A stretch of 64,000 bases of DNA from assembly GCA_963666425.2 (NCBI GenBank), contig OY762825.2, forward strand, positions 704,001 to 768,000, read 5' to 3'. This document shows, in pieces, positions 1 to 7,622 of this stretch (position 1 is the stretch's first letter; the number at the start of each line of letters is the position of its first letter). The translations under genes were made by a program, and so were the position numbers. Below the pieces are notes generated by a model. The model made no database searches. It was not told the origin of the DNA and saw nothing but the letters and a program-made list of their open reading frames with translations. The stretch is from Bacillota bacterium. GTDB lineage: Bacteria > Bacillota > JAAYKD01.

Positions 1-702
1 TTATGTGAGAAACCAATGGCGATGGATGCAGCGGAATGCCGCCTGATGATAGAGACGGCGCAGCGCTGCAATCAACAGCTGATGATCGGTCATTGTCTGC
101 GCTTCTGGGGTGAATACGAATTTCTCAAACAGACGATGGAGAGCGGGATTTATGGCAAAGCGATTTCCGCCTATTTCTACCGCGGTGGTTCCACACCGAT
201 GTGGTCGTATGAGAATTGGCTTTTAAAAGCCGACCGTGGCGGCGGCGCCGTCTACGATCAGCATGTGCATGACGTGGATATGGTGCAGTACCTCTTCGGT
301 ATGCCGCGAGAAGTCTGCACACTCGGTCAGGTTGTCATACCCGGCAGCAATTTCGATACCGTATCGACCAATTACGATTATCCCAATCTGGTGGTCAACA
401 GCCAGAATGACTGGACCCTGTCCGGTATTGCCTTCAGCATGGGATTCCGGGTAAATTTTGAGCACGGCACTGTTCAGATGGATCAGGACGGTCTGCACGT
501 TGCGGCAACCGGCGAAGCCTTCCGTGAACCGGCCTATGATCATGAAAACGCTTATTACAAAGAAGTGCTTTATTTTGCCGACTGTATTCTGCATCAAAAG
601 CAAAACAGCATCAACCCGCCGGAGGATTCATTACAAACCATTTTGCTGGTCCATGCTGAAATCGAATCTGCCAAGCACGGCGGCAAACCGGTTGCACTAT
701 AA
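1..702 (+). CDS. Gfo/Idh/MocA family oxidoreductase, 5' end truncated by the window
   Basis: CEKPMA at the window start, GHCLRF, and GGGAVYDQHVHDVD are motifs typical of this family. Confidence 0.85.
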   Translation, partial: LCEKPMAMDAAECRLMIETAQRCNQQLMIGHCLRFWGEYEFLKQTMESGIYGKAISAYFYRGGSTPMWSYENWLLKADRGGGAVYDQHVHDVDMVQYLFGMPREVCTLGQVVIPGSNFDTVSTNYDYPNLVVNSQNDWTLSGIAFSMGFRVNFEHGTVQMDQDGLHVAATGEAFREPAYDHENAYYKEVLYFADCILHQKQNSINPPEDSLQTILLVHAEIESAKHGGKPVAL

Positions 703-739
703 TCCATTATTACAATTTCGGTAAGGAGTTGCCGCTTAC

Positions 740-1231
740 ATGAATCAAATTCGCCAGTTCGTTTTAGAAGCTTTGGAGTACGCTAACGTTGCTTACAAGA
801 TCACCGAGCATCCGGCTGTCTATACGATAGAAGAAATGGATCGGCTGCAGATCGATCCTCAAAACGAGGTAGCAAAGAATCTTTTTCTTCGTGATGATAA
901 AAAGCAAAGATATTTTCTGCTTGTGCTGCCAAAATACAAGCAAGTAGATTTGAATGCGATTCGAATGGCAGTAGACAGCCGACGGTTAAGCTTTGCTTCG
1001 ACAGACGATCTAGCTCATTACTTAGGTTTAAGCAAAGGTGCGGTCTCGCCTCTGGGTGTTCTCAATGATACTGAGCGAAGTGTAGAAGTCGTGTTAGATC
1101 AGGAGCTGCGCAGTTACGAACGCATCGGAGTTCATCCCAACGAGAATACAGCCACGCTTTGGCTGCGCCCGGCCGATTTGCTATTGATCATTCAACAACA
1201 TGGTAATCCGGTCAGCTACTGCCGGTTTTAA
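740..1231 (+). CDS. YbaK/ProX (PrdX-like) aminoacyl-tRNA editing protein
   Basis: HPAVYT, AKNLFLRD, GAVSPLG and HPNENTAT motifs; AAGGAG RBS upstream. Confidence 0.85.
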   Translation: MNQIRQFVLEALEYANVAYKITEHPAVYTIEEMDRLQIDPQNEVAKNLFLRDDKKQRYFLLVLPKYKQVDLNAIRMAVDSRRLSFASTDDLAHYLGLSKGAVSPLGVLNDTERSVEVVLDQELRSYERIGVHPNENTATLWLRPADLLLIIQQHGNPVSYCRF

Positions 1232-1620
1232 GCCGATTATTTATGTCGATATACGGTTTTTGCCAGGAGATTTCACCCGAAAAATCAATCAAATCGATGC
1301 GTGCGGAACGGTCAAGACCGTTCCCTACATTTTTCGAGTTGGTCAGATTATCAATTTATATCACTGACGAGATGCTTTTAAGAACGAAGCATACAAGTAT
1401 TTTACGAGATTACCGTAAAAAACCGCAGGTATCCTGCAGCGAAGCATCACCCCTCGGGGTGCAGCTAGCGGAAGGATACCGAGCGGTTTTTGTTATGGTT
1501 AGATTACCCCGATAGGCCAATCAAATCGATGCACGCGGAACGGTCAAGACCGTTCCCTACATTTTTCGAGTTGGTCAGATTATCAATTTACATCACTGAC
1601 GAGATGCTTTTTAGAACGAA

Positions 1621-1702
1621 GCATACAAGCAGATGCAATGCATACAAACAAATGCAATGCATACAAACAAATGCAATGCATACAAACAGATGCAATGCAT
1701 AC
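1621..1702. repeat. 19-bp VNTR (GCATACAAACAGATGCAAT), about 4.3 copies; about 3.3 copies at 5553-5615, degenerate at ~3744-3830, absent from the first unit
   Basis: GCATAC recurs at 1621, 1640, 1659, 1678 and 1697. Confidence 0.9.
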
Positions 1703-1861
1703 GAGCTGGGGTAAAGCATACAAGCATTTTACGAGATTACCGTAAAAAACCGCAGGTAACCTACAGCGAAGCATCACCCCTCGGGGTGCAGCTAGCGAAA
1801 GGACGCCGAGCGGTTTTTGTCATGCAAAGTTGAGCCTGATAGATTGAACAAATCGATACAT

Positions 1862-2083
1862 GCGGAACGGTCAAGACCGTTCCCTACCTTGCGAGTTGGT
1901 TGAAGTAACACCGCAATGTAATGAAGCTACGCCAAAACGGGTTACGCGGAACGGTCAAGACCGTTCCCTACCTTGCGAGTTGGTTGAAGTAACACCGCAG
2001 AACGATAGAGTTACGTCAGGACGGGGTACGCGGAACGGTCAAGACCGTTCCCTACCTTGCGAGTTGGTTGAAGTAACACCGCA
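1862..2083. repeat. 84-bp-period tandem repeat: REP plus a constant 28-bp tail, then a ~30-bp variable segment
   Basis: Unit starts at 1862, 1946 and 2030. Confidence 0.9.
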
Positions 2084-2274
2084 ATGTTGCGTGTAGGTTG
2101 AAATAACACCGCAATGTAATGAAGCTACGCCGGGAACGCAGGGACGCCAGGACTGGGCACGCGGAACGGTCAAGACCGTTCCCTCGTATATACTAATAGT
2201 GCCAAGGTAACTCATTTACAGGGTACAGGAAGCGAGCCAAAGCCACTCTTTAGGTATCCAAGGGGTTTGCCCTT

Positions 2275-2285
2275 TGTGGTATAAT
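2275..2285 (+). promoter_or_regulatory. Extended -10 promoter (TGTG-G-TATAAT) just upstream of the predicted bridge RNA loops; also present at 4083-4093
   Basis: Exact TRTGnTATAAT consensus. Confidence 0.6.
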
Positions 2286-2420
2286 TTTGTCAGGCAGAGG
2301 TCAACGTACCGTTCCCTGGGAATCGTTCCTGTGATGTAGAGTGTTGCCTCTGATCTGACAGAAATCTGCGTATTGGCTGGATAGGGTAAAATCCTTGTAT
2401 TTCACGCGAGGTTGCAGCTG
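2286..2420 (+). ncRNA. Predicted IS110 bridge RNA (target-binding loop plus donor-binding loop)
   Basis: The stem TGTCAG/CAGAGG/CAAC...GTTG/CCTCTG/CTGACA encloses ACCGTTCCCT (2308-17) and ATGTAG (2334-39), which match the target; a second stem CTGC...GCAG encloses TGGCT (2374-78) and GCGAG (2406-10), which match the donor junction. Confidence 0.8.
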
Positions 2421-2474
2421 TCAGCGTCAGAGAGATCATCCTTTGCCGCATTCCAGTTTGAGGAGTTGCTGTAA

Positions 2475-3647
2475 ATGATTACTTTTGGCGTAGACATCGG
2501 TAAATTCCGTCACCAGGCGATCGCGGTGGACGCCAGTGGTCAAGCGCTGGCTCCCTCGTTTGCATTTGAAAATTCCGAAGAGGGCTTTCAATTGTTTTTG
2601 CAGAAGGTCGCTCTTTACCAAAAGCAAGATGCAATTTGCGTCGGCATGGAAGCCACCGGTCATTACTGGCTGAATTTTTATTGTGTTTTACTCGATTTAG
2701 AAATTGAATTGCATGTGGTCAATCCCCTGCTCACCGACGCCATACGGCGCATGTCTGTCCGTAAAACCAAGACGGATACGGTGGATTGCGGTTATATCGC
2801 GGATGTGATCCGCATGGGACGTTATTCCGACGTAGCGGTACAAACGGAGGATGTCCAGAATTTACGCGAGTTATGCCGTTTCCGCTGTTCTCTGGTTGAT
2901 GAGATTGCAAAGCACAAAAACCATGTAATTGGCGTGCTGGATCATCTTTTTCCGGAATATCACAAGCTTTTTTCAGATATTTTCGGTAAAACTTCGCTGG
3001 AGTTGCTCAGCAAGTATCCGTCACCGGATGCCATTCTGAAGCTCGGCACAAAGCGGTTGGCTGATTTTTTAGCGAAGCATTCCCGCGGCAGTTTCGGTGA
3101 GGAAAAAGCGCTGGAGATCCGCAGCGCCTGCAAACACACAGTTGGGGTGAATAGAGCGAATGCTGCTCTATGCTTTGAATTACACCAAACCGTGGATCTG
3201 ATTCAATTCATTGAAGAACAGATTGACGCAATTGAGAATAAGATTGAGCAGATCTATTCCCAATGTGAATGCTATCTGGATACCATTATTGGTGTTGGAG
3301 TCACCTCGGCTGCGGTGATCTACTCGGAAATCGGCAATATTGATAATTTCGAAAATCCAAAGAAATTGGCGGCATTTGCCGGTATTGACCCTTCGATTAA
3401 GCAATCCGGTAATTTCACTTCAACGCACAACACGATGTCGAAGCGAGGCTCACCTTATCTGCGCAGAGCGCTCTGGAATGCTGCAACGGTTGCCGCGCAA
3501 AAAGATCCGGTCATGTCTGCTTTTTACCAGAAGAAACGCGACGAAGGAAAAGATTATATGACGGCAATTGGAGCTGTTACACATAAATTATGCAACATTG
3601 TTTTTGCTGTTTTAAGGGATAAAAAGCCTTATGTTCCCAGAATATAA
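2475..3647 (+). CDS. IS110 family recombinase/transposase
   Basis: DEDD residues GVD7, ME59ATG and KTD101TVD104; C-terminal LAAFAGIDP..QSG...SKRGSPYLRRAL. Confidence 0.97.
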   Translation: MITFGVDIGKFRHQAIAVDASGQALAPSFAFENSEEGFQLFLQKVALYQKQDAICVGMEATGHYWLNFYCVLLDLEIELHVVNPLLTDAIRRMSVRKTKTDTVDCGYIADVIRMGRYSDVAVQTEDVQNLRELCRFRCSLVDEIAKHKNHVIGVLDHLFPEYHKLFSDIFGKTSLELLSKYPSPDAILKLGTKRLADFLAKHSRGSFGEEKALEIRSACKHTVGVNRANAALCFELHQTVDLIQFIEEQIDAIENKIEQIYSQCECYLDTIIGVGVTSAAVIYSEIGNIDNFENPKKLAAFAGIDPSIKQSGNFTSTHNTMSKRGSPYLRRALWNAATVAAQKDPVMSAFYQKKRDEGKDYMTAIGAVTHKLCNIVFAVLRDKKPYVPRI

Positions 3648-4093
3648 TTTTCGTTTTGCCACTTGACGTTTGATAGCTGGCTACATTTTTTGAGTTGGTC
3701 AGATTATCAATTTATATCACTGACGAGATGCTTTTAAGAACGAAGTATACAAACAGATGCAATGTCATACGAGCAAGAGCAATGCATACAAACAGATGCA
3801 ATGCATACAAACAAGAGCAATGTCATACGAGCATTTTACGAGATTACCGTAAAAAACCGCAGGCATCCTGCAGCGAAGCATCACCCCTCGGGGTGCAGCT
3901 AGCGGAAGGATACCGAGCGGTTTTTGTCATGCAGAGTTGAGCCTGATAGATTGATCAAATCGATGCGTGCGGAACGGTCAAGACCGTTCCCTCGTATATA
4001 CTAGTAGTGCCAAGGTAACTCATTTACAGGGTACAGGAAGCGAGCCAAAGCCACTCTTTAAGTATCCAAGGGGTTTGCCCTTTGTGGTATAAT

Positions 4094-4228
4094 TTTGTCA
4101 GGCAGAGGTCAACGTACTGTTCCCTGGGAATCGTTCCTGTGATGTAGAGTGTTGCCTCTGATCTGACAGAAATCTGCGTATTGGCTGGATAGGGTAAAAT
4201 CCTTGTATTTCACGCGAGGTTGCAGCTG
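4094..4228 (+). ncRNA. Predicted bridge RNA, copy 2 (left target guide ACTGTTCCCT)
   Basis: Same as copy 1 except C>T at 4118. Confidence 0.78.
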
Positions 4229-4282
4229 TCAGCGTCAGAGAGATCATCCTTTGCCGCATTCCAGTTTGAGGAGTTGCTGTAA

Positions 4283-5455
4283 ATGATTACTTTTGGCGTA
4301 GACATCGGTAAATTCCGTCACCAGGCGATCGCGGTGGACGCCAGTGGTCAAGCGCTGGCTCCCTCGTTTGCATTTGAAAATTCCGAAGAGGGCTTTCAAT
4401 TGTTTTTGCAGAAGGTCGCTTTTTACCAAAAGCAAGATGCAATTTGCGTCGGCATGGAAGCCACCGGTCATTACTGGCTGAATTTTTATTGTGTTTTACT
4501 CGATTTAGGAATTGAATTGCATGTGGTCAATCCCCTGCTCACCGACGCCATACGGCGCATGTCTGTCCGTAAAACCAAGACGGATACGGTGGATTGCGGT
4601 TATATCGCGGATGTGATCCGCATGGGACGTTATTCCGACGTAGCGGTACAAACGGAGGATGTCCAGAATTTACGCGAGTTATGCCGTTTCCGCTGTTCTC
4701 TGGTTGATGAGATTGCAAAGCACAAAAACCATGTAATTGGCGTGCTGGATCACCTTTTTCCGGAATATCACAAGCTGTTTTCAGATATTTTCGGTAAAAC
4801 TTCGCTGGAGTTGCTCAGCAAGTATCCGTCACCGGATGCCATTCTGAAGCTCGGTACAAAGCGGTTGGCTGATTTTTTAGCGAAGCATTCCCGCGGCAGT
4901 TTCGGTGAGGAAAAAGCGCTCGAGATCCGCAGCGCCTGCAGACACACTGTTGGTGTGAATAGAGCGAACGCTGCTCTATGCTTTGAATTACACCAAACCG
5001 TGGATCTGATTCAATTCATTGAAGAACAGATTGACGCAATTGAGAATAAGATTGAGCAGATCTATTCCCAATGTGAATGCTATCTGGATACCATTATTGG
5101 TGTTGGAGTCACCTCGGCTGCGGTGATCTACTCGGAAATCGGCAATATTGATAATTTCGAAAATCCAAAGAAATTGGCGGCATTTGCCGGTATTGACCCT
5201 TCGATTAAGCAATCCGGTAATTTCACTTCAACGCACAACACGATGTCGAAGCGAGGCTCACCTTATCTGCGCAGAGCGCTCTGGAATGCCGCAACGGTTG
5301 CCGCGCAAAAAGATCCGGTCATGTCTGCTTTTTACCAGAAGAAACGCGACGAAGGAAAAGATTATATGACGGCAATTGGAGCTGTTACACATAAATTATG
5401 CAACATTGTTTTCGCTGTTTTAAGGGATAAAAAGCCTTATGTTCCCAGAATATAA
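4283..5455 (+). CDS. IS110 family recombinase/transposase, copy 2
   Basis: 390 aa with three amino-acid differences from copy 1 (L47F, E76G, and K>R in ACKH). Confidence 0.97.
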   Translation: MITFGVDIGKFRHQAIAVDASGQALAPSFAFENSEEGFQLFLQKVAFYQKQDAICVGMEATGHYWLNFYCVLLDLGIELHVVNPLLTDAIRRMSVRKTKTDTVDCGYIADVIRMGRYSDVAVQTEDVQNLRELCRFRCSLVDEIAKHKNHVIGVLDHLFPEYHKLFSDIFGKTSLELLSKYPSPDAILKLGTKRLADFLAKHSRGSFGEEKALEIRSACRHTVGVNRANAALCFELHQTVDLIQFIEEQIDAIENKIEQIYSQCECYLDTIIGVGVTSAAVIYSEIGNIDNFENPKKLAAFAGIDPSIKQSGNFTSTHNTMSKRGSPYLRRALWNAATVAAQKDPVMSAFYQKKRDEGKDYMTAIGAVTHKLCNIVFAVLRDKKPYVPRI

Positions 5456-5743
5456 TTTTCGTTTTGCCACTTGACGTTTGATAGCTGGCTACATTTTTCG
5501 AGTTGGTCAAATTATCAATTTACATCACTGACGAGATGCTTTTAAGAACGAAGCATACAAACAGATGCAATGCATACAAACAGATGCAATGCATACAAAC
5601 AGATGCAATGCATACGAGCTGGGGTAAAGCATACAAGCATTTTACGAGATTACCGTAAAAAACCGCAGGTATCCTGCAGCGAAGCATCACCCCTCGGGGT
5701 GCAGCTAGCGAAAGGACGCCGAGCGGTTTTTGTCGTGATGGGT

Positions 5744-6517
5744 TTATACAATCGGTTTTTCCTGTGGCATCAGCCTAAGCGCCAATGCATCGCCGTTTCC
5801 ATTCGGCTGGTAATCGATGTTGGCTTTTCTAGCCTGACTACCCTGCAAATTGCGGGGAATTCGATACTGTCTGCCCTCTTTGCGAAAATTCGCCCCGGTT
5901 TGCTTAAAATGAAAAGCAACCCGATGCGCAATACACTGCTCCCGGATCTTTAAGACCCAAGCATAATCGCAGACCCGCACATCCACCCCCGACTCGCCGC
6001 CAACCACCACCTGCTGAATTTGCGGTGTCAGAAAAGGTGAAAGATCTTCCGGTCCCAGCAAAGGTTCACAAATGATCAATTTCGTGCGAATTGCAGCTTT
6101 GAGAAAAATTGGTAAACGGTACTCCACCATCTCCTGATTCTCTACCGTGCAGCCGATCGTCACATTGGCGTATCCTTCACCCCAATCGGGCGGCAGACAC
6201 TCCTGCATGCGGTGGATCCGCTTCGTGATAAAGAAAAAATTCAAGTCAGAACGCTGCCGCATCATCTGCCAGGCTTGCGGCCGCCAAGCGTCGGCATCCT
6301 CCAGAAAAAAATCAGAAGTGAAGCAGGTATAAACCGTTTCCCCGCTCGGAATCTTATATTCACCCTGGCGGTTGCGTTTGAGCGGCAAGTCAAAATAGTT
6401 GGTTTTCCGCACGAGACTGCTGTCCAGTTGATGCCGCCCATCCATCCGGTAAACATAACAATTCAGACAGCCTGCGCTGAATTTATGACAGCCGTGCCAA
6501 AGATTCCAAGACGCCAT
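5744..6517 (-). CDS. DUF5131 family (phage Gp37/Gp68-like, radical-SAM-like) protein
   Basis: WNLWHGCHKFSAGCLNCY, FTSDFF, TKR, EPLLG, VVVGGESG and FHFKQTG motifs. Confidence 0.85.
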   Translation of the reverse strand: MASWNLWHGCHKFSAGCLNCYVYRMDGRHQLDSSLVRKTNYFDLPLKRNRQGEYKIPSGETVYTCFTSDFFLEDADAWRPQAWQMMRQRSDLNFFFITKRIHRMQECLPPDWGEGYANVTIGCTVENQEMVEYRLPIFLKAAIRTKLIICEPLLGPEDLSPFLTPQIQQVVVGGESGVDVRVCDYAWVLKIREQCIAHRVAFHFKQTGANFRKEGRQYRIPRNLQGSQARKANIDYQPNGNGDALALRLMPQEKPIV

Positions 6518-6736
6518 CTTTGCACCTCCTGAGCAACACTTGTGATCAGACAGCCTGCGCTGAATTTATGACAACCGTGCCAAAGATTCCAAGACGCCAT
6601 CTTTGCACCTCCTGAGCAACACTTGTGACTAGACAGCCTGCGCTGAATTTATGACAGCCGTGCCAAAGATTCCAGGATGCCATCTTTGCACCTCCTGTGC
6701 AGCGCTTGTGATCAGACAGCTTGCGCCGATTTTATA
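6464..6736 (-). repeat. 83-bp tandem repeat (~3.3 copies), each carrying the RBS, ATG and first 18 codons of the DUF5131 gene
   Basis: Units start at 6464, 6547, 6630 and 6713; ATGs at 6517, 6600 and 6683. Confidence 0.92.
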
Positions 6737-7622
6737 GCTTTTGTTCCCACAACTGATAACCCTGACCGGCTTTGGCCTGGTAACCGTTTTTCAGTAAATA
6801 ATCCACCACCGGATCGCGGGCATCTGCCCAGAACATCGCAGCATTATAATCATGTTTGACTACTTCCGCTTCAATCGCCGGCAAAGCCCGTTGCCAAACG
6901 GCAGGCTCCTGCGCCACCTGCCCCATAATCAAATAACCTTGATCAGCTAAATCATCTTCGTCTCCGTAAAAGGCATCGATCCAGGCCAGTGTTCTACCGT
7001 TTTCCTGATAGCGAAAGAAATGCGGCTGATCATCATAGAGGATCGCCTCTTTCATCTGATCGTTTTTACCCAGCACAATAAAATCAAAGCATACCATAAA
7101 CCCATTGGCAGCAATTGCGGCAGGATTTTTAGCCATCGCTGCCGTATAACCCGCAATCTCTTCTGCGCCGGCCGGTTCCCAGCCTCCTACCACCTCATTT
7201 GGCTGCCGGATGCCGTTTTTGATGTAAGCCTGATACTCGAATACTTTTTCAAATCCCGCTAAACCTGTAACATGCTGTGAAACGTGATTATCGGCATCGA
7301 TGCCACAGCGAGCCACTCGAAAACCTTTGCTCCTGGCAAAAGCCACGCTGTTGGCAGACATCGCTTTGCCGATGCCTTTGCCCTGCATTTCCGGTGCAAT
7401 GCGAATCCCCTGCAGCCAGCAGTTCTCCTCGTCTAAATAAGCGATGTGTGTGGTTCCCACCGGTTTGCCATCCCAAAGAGCGACAAAGGTCATTCCCTTT
7501 TCCGGATGCTGCAGCCACTCTTGCCAACTAAAAATAACATAATCGTCTTCATCTGCCACCCGCGGCAGCATTTCCTTAATCTCCGGCCAATGACACAGTT
7601 GTGCCTCTACGATTTCTAACAT
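6732..7622 (-). CDS. GNAT family N-acetyltransferase
   Basis: WLQGIRIAPEMQGKGIGK acetyl-CoA binding motif. Confidence 0.8.
   Translation of the reverse strand: MLEIVEAQLCHWPEIKEMLPRVADEDDYVIFSWQEWLQHPEKGMTFVALWDGKPVGTTHIAYLDEENCWLQGIRIAPEMQGKGIGKAMSANSVAFARSKGFRVARCGIDADNHVSQHVTGLAGFEKVFEYQAYIKNGIRQPNEVVGGWEPAGAEEIAGYTAAMAKNPAAIAANGFMVCFDFIVLGKNDQMKEAILYDDQPHFFRYQENGRTLAWIDAFYGDEDDLADQGYLIMGQVAQEPAVWQRALPAIEAEVVKHDYNAAMFWADARDPVVDYLLKNGYQAKAGQGYQLWEQKL

Follow-up and report, generated by a model that had tools for sequence, protein, structure and literature searches.

An IS110-family element with a predicted bridge RNA occupies repetitive extragenic palindromes with either of two right flanks in a Bacillota genome

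Introduction

Repetitive extragenic palindromes (REPs) have long been known as targets of insertion sequences (ISs) of the IS110 family (PMC1525189). For IS621 of Escherichia coli, the respective reports describe a left target guide of 9 nucleotides (nt) and a right target guide of 4 nt, core included, with a 7-nt extension that only improves specificity (PMC11208160), as well as half-match insertion (10.64898/2026.08.31.748434). For ISPpu10 of Pseudomonas, the source reports a right guide that is stringent except for a G·T wobble at position 3, and enhancement of integration by the REP stem-loop located 5′ of the core (10.64898/2026.03.19.712850). Here, we describe an IS110-family element that is present in two copies in a REP array within a 64,000-nt stretch of DNA from a Bacillota bacterium (positions 704,001 to 768,000 of contig OY762825.2, assembly GCA_963666425.2; hereafter the window, numbered from its first letter). 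A preliminary description of this array had proposed that occupancy of the REPs tracks the match to the right guide, such that REP copies followed by ACCT may be protected from insertion.

The element resembles IS621 in its recombinase, which combines a DEDD domain with a Tnp domain, in its predicted left-end guide RNA, which has one loop for the target and another for the donor, and in its CT core. Both elements insert at the 3′ side of REP hairpins, both targets end in ...CCTAC (for IS621, as given in PMC11208160), and the junction of the right end and the left end (RE–LE junction) of the present element would yield a −35/−10-like pair, as in IS621. Differences concern the protein, which is only distantly related, the length of the element (1498 bp here versus 1277 bp for IS621; PMC11208160), the REP family, the host, and the left guide, which may here be 8+2 nt long. 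The natural mismatch reported for IS621 is rG:dT at left position 4 (PMC11208160), whereas the one observed here is U:C at right position +3. As in ISPpu10, ISPpu9, and ISPa11 of Pseudomonas, all copies lie in one REP family, many identical targets are empty, and the 3′ arm of a GC-rich stem-loop at the target forms the left target (PMC1525189; 10.64898/2026.03.19.712850). The hosts of those elements are Proteobacteria, whereas the nearest transposases to the present one are Clostridia-type (see below). The REPs themselves are comparable to systems in which REPs accompany a REP-associated tyrosine transposase (RAYT): the palindrome is short, occurs in about 190 clustered copies, is confined to one genus among those searched, and has a Y1-transposase gene between its copies. 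They differ from such systems in that the score of the candidate RAYT does not reach the NCBIfam cut-off and in that the tandem arrays of composite units are unusually long.

As a whole, the data are best explained by a bridge-RNA IS110 element that inserts at the CT core of the REPs and uses both ACAT- and ACCT-flanked copies, a reading to which we assign a probability of about 0.88.

Results

REPs followed by ACAT and by ACCT are both occupied

The REP core (hairpin GGAACGGTC-AA-GACCGTTCC plus CT) occurs in seven identical copies on the forward strand of the window, four of them followed by ACAT and three by ACCT, exactly as the preliminary description had it. Two of the ACAT copies, at 1303–1326 and 1535–1558, are empty and constitute perfect targets that match the occupied site of IS copy 2 through at least +19 (bases to the right of the CT core being numbered from +1). 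The other two are occupied: the one at 2161–2184, whose left flank belongs to the ACCT-type unit family, by IS copy 1, and the one at 3969–3992 by IS copy 2, with ACAT resuming after each element. The three ACCT copies, at 1862–1885 (in the first of three 84-bp units), 1946–1969, and 2030–2053, are empty. The 26-mer given in the preliminary description is matched without mismatches at 1303, 1535, 1862, 1946, and 2030 and with two mismatches at 2161 and 3969, these being the first bases of the inserted element directly after ...CCCT; by chance, no match is expected in the window (100 shuffles). It had been conceded that two insertions could fall at ACAT copies fortuitously, and rightly so: if two insertions are placed at random in a set of four ACAT and three ACCT sites, both come to lie at ACAT with a probability of 6/21 = 0.29, and the pattern in the window does not go beyond chance.

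REP sites and IS copies were then counted throughout the source assembly (18 contigs, 3.2 Mb, of which contig C1 makes up 2.9 Mb; contamination 6.85%). A REP site was defined as a match to the 24-nt core with at most three substitutions, and IS copies were removed in silico before tabulation. This yielded 194 REP sites in 32 arrays, with a hairpin stem of 8–9 pairs; the extragenic location of the REPs was checked in the window. The genome holds 10 full-length IS copies with 99–100% identity and an intact open reading frame (ORF) in 10 of 10 cases, all located directly after ...TTCCCT. Their right flank is ACAT in seven cases and ACCT in three (C1:560959, C1:1537838, and C1:1540109). Tabulated by flank, 7 of 89 ACAT sites and 3 of 66 ACCT sites are occupied, as compared with 0/16 for ACAA, 0/8 for ACAG, and 0/15 for all others. 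Occupancy of ACAT and ACCT sites does not differ significantly (Fisher p = 0.52; odds ratio 1.79, 95% confidence interval 0.39–11.1), and this holds when the comparison is confined to C1 (6/60 versus 3/48, p = 0.73) or to sites with the exact left target CCGTTCC (5/58 versus 3/38, p = 1.0). Among the 194 sites, AC is present at +1/+2 in 188, +3 is A in 115 and C in 74, and +4 is T in 156.

The 10 copies differ at 27 alignment columns, none of which lies within the predicted right guide (2334–2339). Copy 2 of the window (C1:707993, ACAT) and the copy at C1:560959 (ACCT) show 0 differences, and the copies at C1:1537838 and C1:1540109 (both ACCT) likewise show 0 differences from that at C17:12811 (ACAT). 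Because IS copies that are identical in sequence, and share one unvarying guide, occupy both flank types, ACCT-flanked REPs are not protected, and absolute protection is refuted within one and the same genome. The mismatch that is accommodated at ACCT sites places U2335 opposite C at +3.

The proposal of protection implies that the 6-nt guide AUGUAG must pair fully, so that occupancy follows the base at +3. The two window insertions at ACAT next to three empty ACCT sites fit this proposal, and the genome-wide point estimate leans the same way (7.9% versus 4.5%). Against it stand the chance probability of the window pattern, the 3 of 10 copies at ACCT with the p values given above, and the identity of copies at the two flank types; REPs with ACCT flanks elsewhere in the genome are occupied at a rate similar to that of ACAT-flanked ones, and the claim was not borne out.

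One may ask whether the ACCT copies were inserted where they now lie, or reached these sites by homologous recombination between IS copies, with exchange of flanks, or by segmental duplication within arrays. Window copy 1 does have flanks from two unit families, and the identical copies at 1537838 and 1540109 are only 2.3 kb apart. At the three ACCT copies, however, no flank exchange is visible. Both flanks of each are those of empty neighboring units of the same arrays, which is why we regard the three as simple insertions. The 1537838 and 1540109 copies have an identical IS but flanks that differ from each other (at 1 of 21 left-hand positions and at 2 of the first 23 right-hand ones), so separate insertions fit better than duplication, and the copy at 560959 lies in a different array. 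Recombination or duplication is thus a highly unlikely source of the ACCT copies.

Right-guide complementarity fades beyond the second base

Covariation between guides and flanks was assessed in relatives of the element. From 80 related loci, those with all three sequence anchors were used, so that the right guide was assessed in 32 loci and the left guide in 33; the 47–48 loci without one of the anchors were left out. The anchors force a CT/AG match at the core, so the core columns are uninformative. With the anchor of the right guide set immediately 5′ to the closing stem, complementarity amounts to 0.94 at +1 (permuted 0.55), 0.81 at +2 (permuted 0.39), 0.56 at +3 (permuted 0.32, P = 0.0024), and 0.47 at +4 (permuted 0.36, P = 0.11), and reaches background from +5. 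On the left side, guide and flank agree over about seven bases outside the core, a comparison in which the choice of the best offset inflates the number of matches, as is visible from the permutation row. The predicted guides in the window, at 2308–2317 and 2334–2339, lie at positions homologous to those of the relatives. Because complementarity is strong at +1/+2, partial at +3, and gone by +5, the A/C dimorphism at +3 falls at a tolerated position, and the decay after +2 agrees with the 4-nt right guide plus soft extension published for IS621 (PMC11208160).

These data bear on the full-pairing requirement in two ways. The complementarity above chance at +3 (0.56 versus 0.32) is in its favor, and the mismatch at this position in 44% of the natural sites of relatives speaks against it; taken together with the census, such a requirement is very improbable. 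In a weaker version, ACAT would be favored few-fold over ACCT by virtue of an extra U–A pair at +3 that stabilizes the complex, with ACCT remaining usable. The odds ratio of 1.79 and the partial covariation signal at +3 go with such a preference, as does the raised specificity of IS621 with an extended right target guide (PMC11208160). The difference is not significant, however, and the rates for the exact left target are nearly equal (8.6% versus 7.9%). With 10 events, a modest quantitative preference for ACAT is compatible with the counts, and we consider a few-fold effect possible but somewhat unlikely.

In most of the related IS110 elements (loci L002–L079), the left guides and left flanks end in ...CCTCCT, the complement of the Shine–Dalgarno-like AGGAGG. 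The clade may thus commonly target sequences resembling ribosome-binding sites rather than REPs.

The insertion site of copy 2 is empty in a sister genome

One other genome of the genus (G001) was compared; its assembly is fragmented and includes one assembled IS copy. The segments matching window positions 3825–3992 and 5489–5792 are contiguous in this genome (87% and 98% identity, respectively), and the REP ends in ...GTTCCCT followed directly by ACATTTTCGAG... (ACAT). This junction is the empty counterpart of the site of copy 2. G001 contains 73 matches to the REP family, and its IS copy, which is 97% identical to the present element, occupies an ACAT site and carries the U-type left guide (see below). 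The REP was not found in 11 other relatives searched. Assembled contigs from four of 23 public sequencing runs, consisting of short pieces broken at repeats, were also compared. In run X3, one contig links 3992 to 5810, with 59 nt of other sequence in between, so the strain concerned lacks IS copy 2 and has a different unit at this place. A search of metagenome contigs for further insertion junctions gave 0 matches to the exact 23-nt right-end pattern.

Anatomy of the element and its predicted bridge RNA

Both copies in the window lie on the forward strand and are 1498 bp long, terminal CT included in the case of copy 1 (2185–3682; copy 2, 3993–5490), and each is followed by ACAT. They encode an intact 390-residue transposase (recombinase) at 2475–3647 and 4283–5455, respectively. 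In this protein, the DEDD_Tnp_IS110 domain (PF01548, 137 bits, E = 5e-40) and the Transposase_20 domain (PF02371, 91 bits, E = 8e-26) are full-length, and the NCBIfam model NF033542, "IS110 family RNA-guided transposase," is matched with 260 bits against a cut-off of 140. The structures of IS621 and ISCro4 are distant protein matches (E = 1e-19); phmmer comparison with the IS621 protein gave E = 1.7e-19, mainly through the C-terminal domain. The motifs fgvD, mEatg, ktDtvD, and mSkrG, which we take to contain the catalytic residues of the recombinase, are visible in an alignment with the IS621 and ISCro4 proteins. Among the best 80 of 516 confirmed matches, the closest transposase outside the genus is 64% identical, others are at most 51% identical, and the closest ones belong to Clostridia-type genomes and metagenome-assembled genomes. 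Judged from its sequence, the element is an undescribed member of the IS110-family RNA-guided transposons of the bridge-RNA type. Its assignment to IS110 and the role of the REP as landing site, both put forward earlier, are borne out by the domains, the NF033542 score, and the position of all 10 copies at REPs.

All 10 genomic copies have CT on both sides (...CCCT|IS...GGCT|AC..), and the right tip of the element reads ...GCTGGCT. The two ends do not align as terminal inverted repeats, and none were found. A subterminal inverted similarity, AGTGCCAA (2200–2208) versus AGTGGCAA (3658–3666), is located about 16 nt from each tip; it may be a contact site of the recombinase or a product of chance. 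The non-coding ends measure about 290 nt on the left and 35 nt on the right. In the RE–LE junction of a circular form, the right-end TTGACG (3663–3668, forward strand) would lie 16 nt from the left-end TATATA (2187–2192), forming a −35/−10-like pair. An extended −10-like motif, TGGTATAAT (2267–2275, forward strand), stands directly upstream of the predicted bridge RNA and was not picked up by a two-hexamer promoter scan. We infer that both the motif and the TTGACG/TATATA pair could serve as promoters.

The minimum free energy fold of 2285–2474 contains two adjacent stem-loops, at 2289–2363 and 2364–2412, and RNAalifold analysis of the window sequence with 37 relatives gave 19 consensus pairs, 12 of which show compensatory changes. 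The first is the predicted target-binding stem-loop (2289–2363, forward strand). It contains the putative left target guide, ACCGUUCC-CU (2308–2317), the DNA of which (ACCGTTCC-CT) is the same, letter for letter, as the REP hairpin's 3′ arm together with the CT core, and the putative right target guide (2334–2339), of which GUAG (2336–2339) would pair with CTAC, and AU (2334–2335) would form a soft extension opposite +3/+4. The full complementarity of ATGTAG with CT-ACAT that had been pointed out before is confirmed at 2334–2339 (4142–4147 in copy 2), at positions homologous to the covarying guide positions of relatives. The second is the predicted donor-binding stem-loop (2364–2416, forward strand). 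By eye, tentative donor guides are UUGGCU (2373–2378), comparable to the end ...CTGGCT, and GCGAG (2406–2410), comparable to CTCGT (tip CGT...).

Left-side variants and local clustering of copies

Within the guides, only position 2310 is polymorphic: window copy 1 has a C there, and the nine other copies as well as the copy of the sister genome have U (T). U2310 would form a Watson–Crick pair with the minority REP variant ACTGTTCC and a G·U wobble with the majority variant ACCGTTCC, whereas ACCATTCC would require two adjacent non-Watson–Crick pairs. Occupancy by left variant is 2/13 for ACTGTTCC, 8/120 for ACCGTTCC, and 0/52 for ACCATTCC; expressed by left target, CCATTCC is occupied in 0 of 52 cases as compared with 10 of 133 for CCGTTCC and CTGTTCC together (p = 0.064). 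The 10 copies fall in 6 of the 32 arrays (permutation P 0.03–0.06), and in two of three lineages, sister copies with 0–1 differences are adjacent in one array (post hoc P of about 0.005). Such adjacency fits copy-out transposition, local hopping with retention of the donor, or gene conversion between neighbors. These figures allow the tentative and, in our estimate, rather doubtful suggestion that occupancy is gated on the side of the left hairpin arm and not by the right flank, and that new copies favor neighboring REPs of the same array.

REP arrays, assembly variants, and origin of the REPs

The flanks of IS copy 1 (2185) come from two unit families, the ACCT-type on the left and the ACAT-type on the right, and its pre-insertion site was therefore a hybrid junction. 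A hybrid junction of the opposite kind, without an IS, is found at 1862, and from these two junctions it follows that the arrays are mosaics joined at REPs. A reading of the 84-bp units (1862–2084) as CRISPR-like was ruled out, since the "spacers" are degenerate versions of one another. A 19-nt minisatellite with the unit GCATACAAACAGATGCAAT occurs in 3.3–4.3 copies at 1621–1702, 3747–3828, and 5553–5615, inside three of the four ACAT-type units and absent from the unit at 1327; its copy number varies between units and in the orthologue in G001. Each ACAT-type unit is closed by a long compound hairpin (AAAAACCGCAGG...CCGAGCGGTTTTT; 1410–1500, 1737–1830, 3843–3930, and 5650–5740), which scans as a minus-strand terminator and has a T-run on the plus strand.

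Outside the window, contigs C2, C16, and C17 carry versions of C1 arrays that differ from these in unit number and IS content. Together with the contamination value, this suggests the presence of a second strain or of unresolved haplotypes in the assembly. An attempt to use these versions as pairs of empty and occupied alleles was dropped, as unit numbers differ and no clean pairs exist. One REP, at C1:96317–96340 and the matching C16:1813–1836, is fully symmetric (AGGGAACGG...CCGTTCCCT), and its central loop reads TCAAGA in one of the two contigs and TCTTGA in the other; the loop of the palindrome is thus inverted between the two versions. An 83-bp remnant of an IS left end (86% identity) is present at C1:1593457–1593539 (L095 1501–1583), where it abuts a CCATTCC-variant REP that has GC in place of CT. 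The remnant may represent a decayed older insertion into this variant, which has no intact copy today.

A Y1-transposase ORF of 179 aa at C1:533030–533401 (L098 1450–1989, minus strand) lies between REPs of this family, seven of which are located within 3.4 kb to either side. The product contains the motifs HVHAIV (HuH-like) and SFYDHVIRD (Tyr), scores above the cut-off for PF01797 (28.6 bits), and has as its best NCBIfam match NF047646, "REP-associated tyrosine transposase," with 68.8 bits, short of the cut-off of 80. It is likely, although not established, that the REPs have a RAYT-type origin. Runs of GGAACGR or GGACGRR stand before many REPs (genome-wide left flanks; L098 1990–2157); they resemble a reiterated REP 5′ arm, and one frame translates as PRSPFLV repeats.

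Discussion

By homology with IS621 and ISPpu10, from which expression of the RNA, base pairing, and chemistry are deduced, insertion may proceed as follows. The left end of about 290 nt would encode an RNA that forms two stem-loops. The first of these holds ACYGUUCC-CU, identical in sequence to the REP 3′ arm and the CT core, which would pair with the bottom strand, and (AU)GUAG, which would pair with CTAC(AT) of the top strand. Through recombination at the CT core, the element would come to lie between ...GTTCCCT and AC..., with a CT left on either side. The REP that serves as target is specific to the genus and was probably spread by a REP-associated tyrosine transposase. Its AC at +1/+2 is conserved and would be the part of the target that the right guide reads firmly, and the A/C dimorphism at +3 would fall in the soft extension of the guide, where a U:C mismatch is tolerated, such that ACAT and ACCT are both used. 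Half-match insertion may contribute as well.

Several observations weigh against this interpretation. The 10 events are not fully independent (four arrays hold two copies each), and a several-fold preference for ACAT lies within the confidence interval of the odds ratio. Contigs C2, C16, and C17 are 80–98% similar versions of C1 arrays, so that some sites may have been counted twice; the table for C1 only yields the same answer. The bridge RNA at the left end is a prediction: the z score of the single-sequence fold, −1.6, is not exceptional, and an Rfam search of window positions 1–7000 returned two chance-level matches (E 0.7–0.8) and none in the left end, the presence of a bridge-RNA model in Rfam 15 being unchecked. 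The assignment of donor guides is tentative, as the proposed left donor guide, compared by eye, matches the right end at only four of six positions in relatives. Finally, the rigid right guide described for ISPpu10 (10.64898/2026.03.19.712850) does not predict tolerance of U:C, whereas a non-wobble mismatch at +3 is seen in 3 of 10 natural insertions here.

Targeting of REPs by bridge-RNA IS110 elements and the RNA-guided mechanism are already known, and the known picture is unchanged by the present data. To this picture, they add a natural data set for one bridge-RNA element, comprising 10 copies, all intact, together with 194 candidate sites and a single orthologous site that is empty, and they extend the range of REP-targeting IS110 elements to a genome with its nearest transposase relatives in Clostridia-type organisms. 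The tolerance of U:C at +3 is a small new datum, which indicates that the third right-side base past the core is not a hard determinant of specificity, even with a non-wobble mismatch. The fading of right-side pairing after two bases, seen across 32 relatives, may be of some use for the design of guides for bridge recombinases and for the prediction of off-target insertion.

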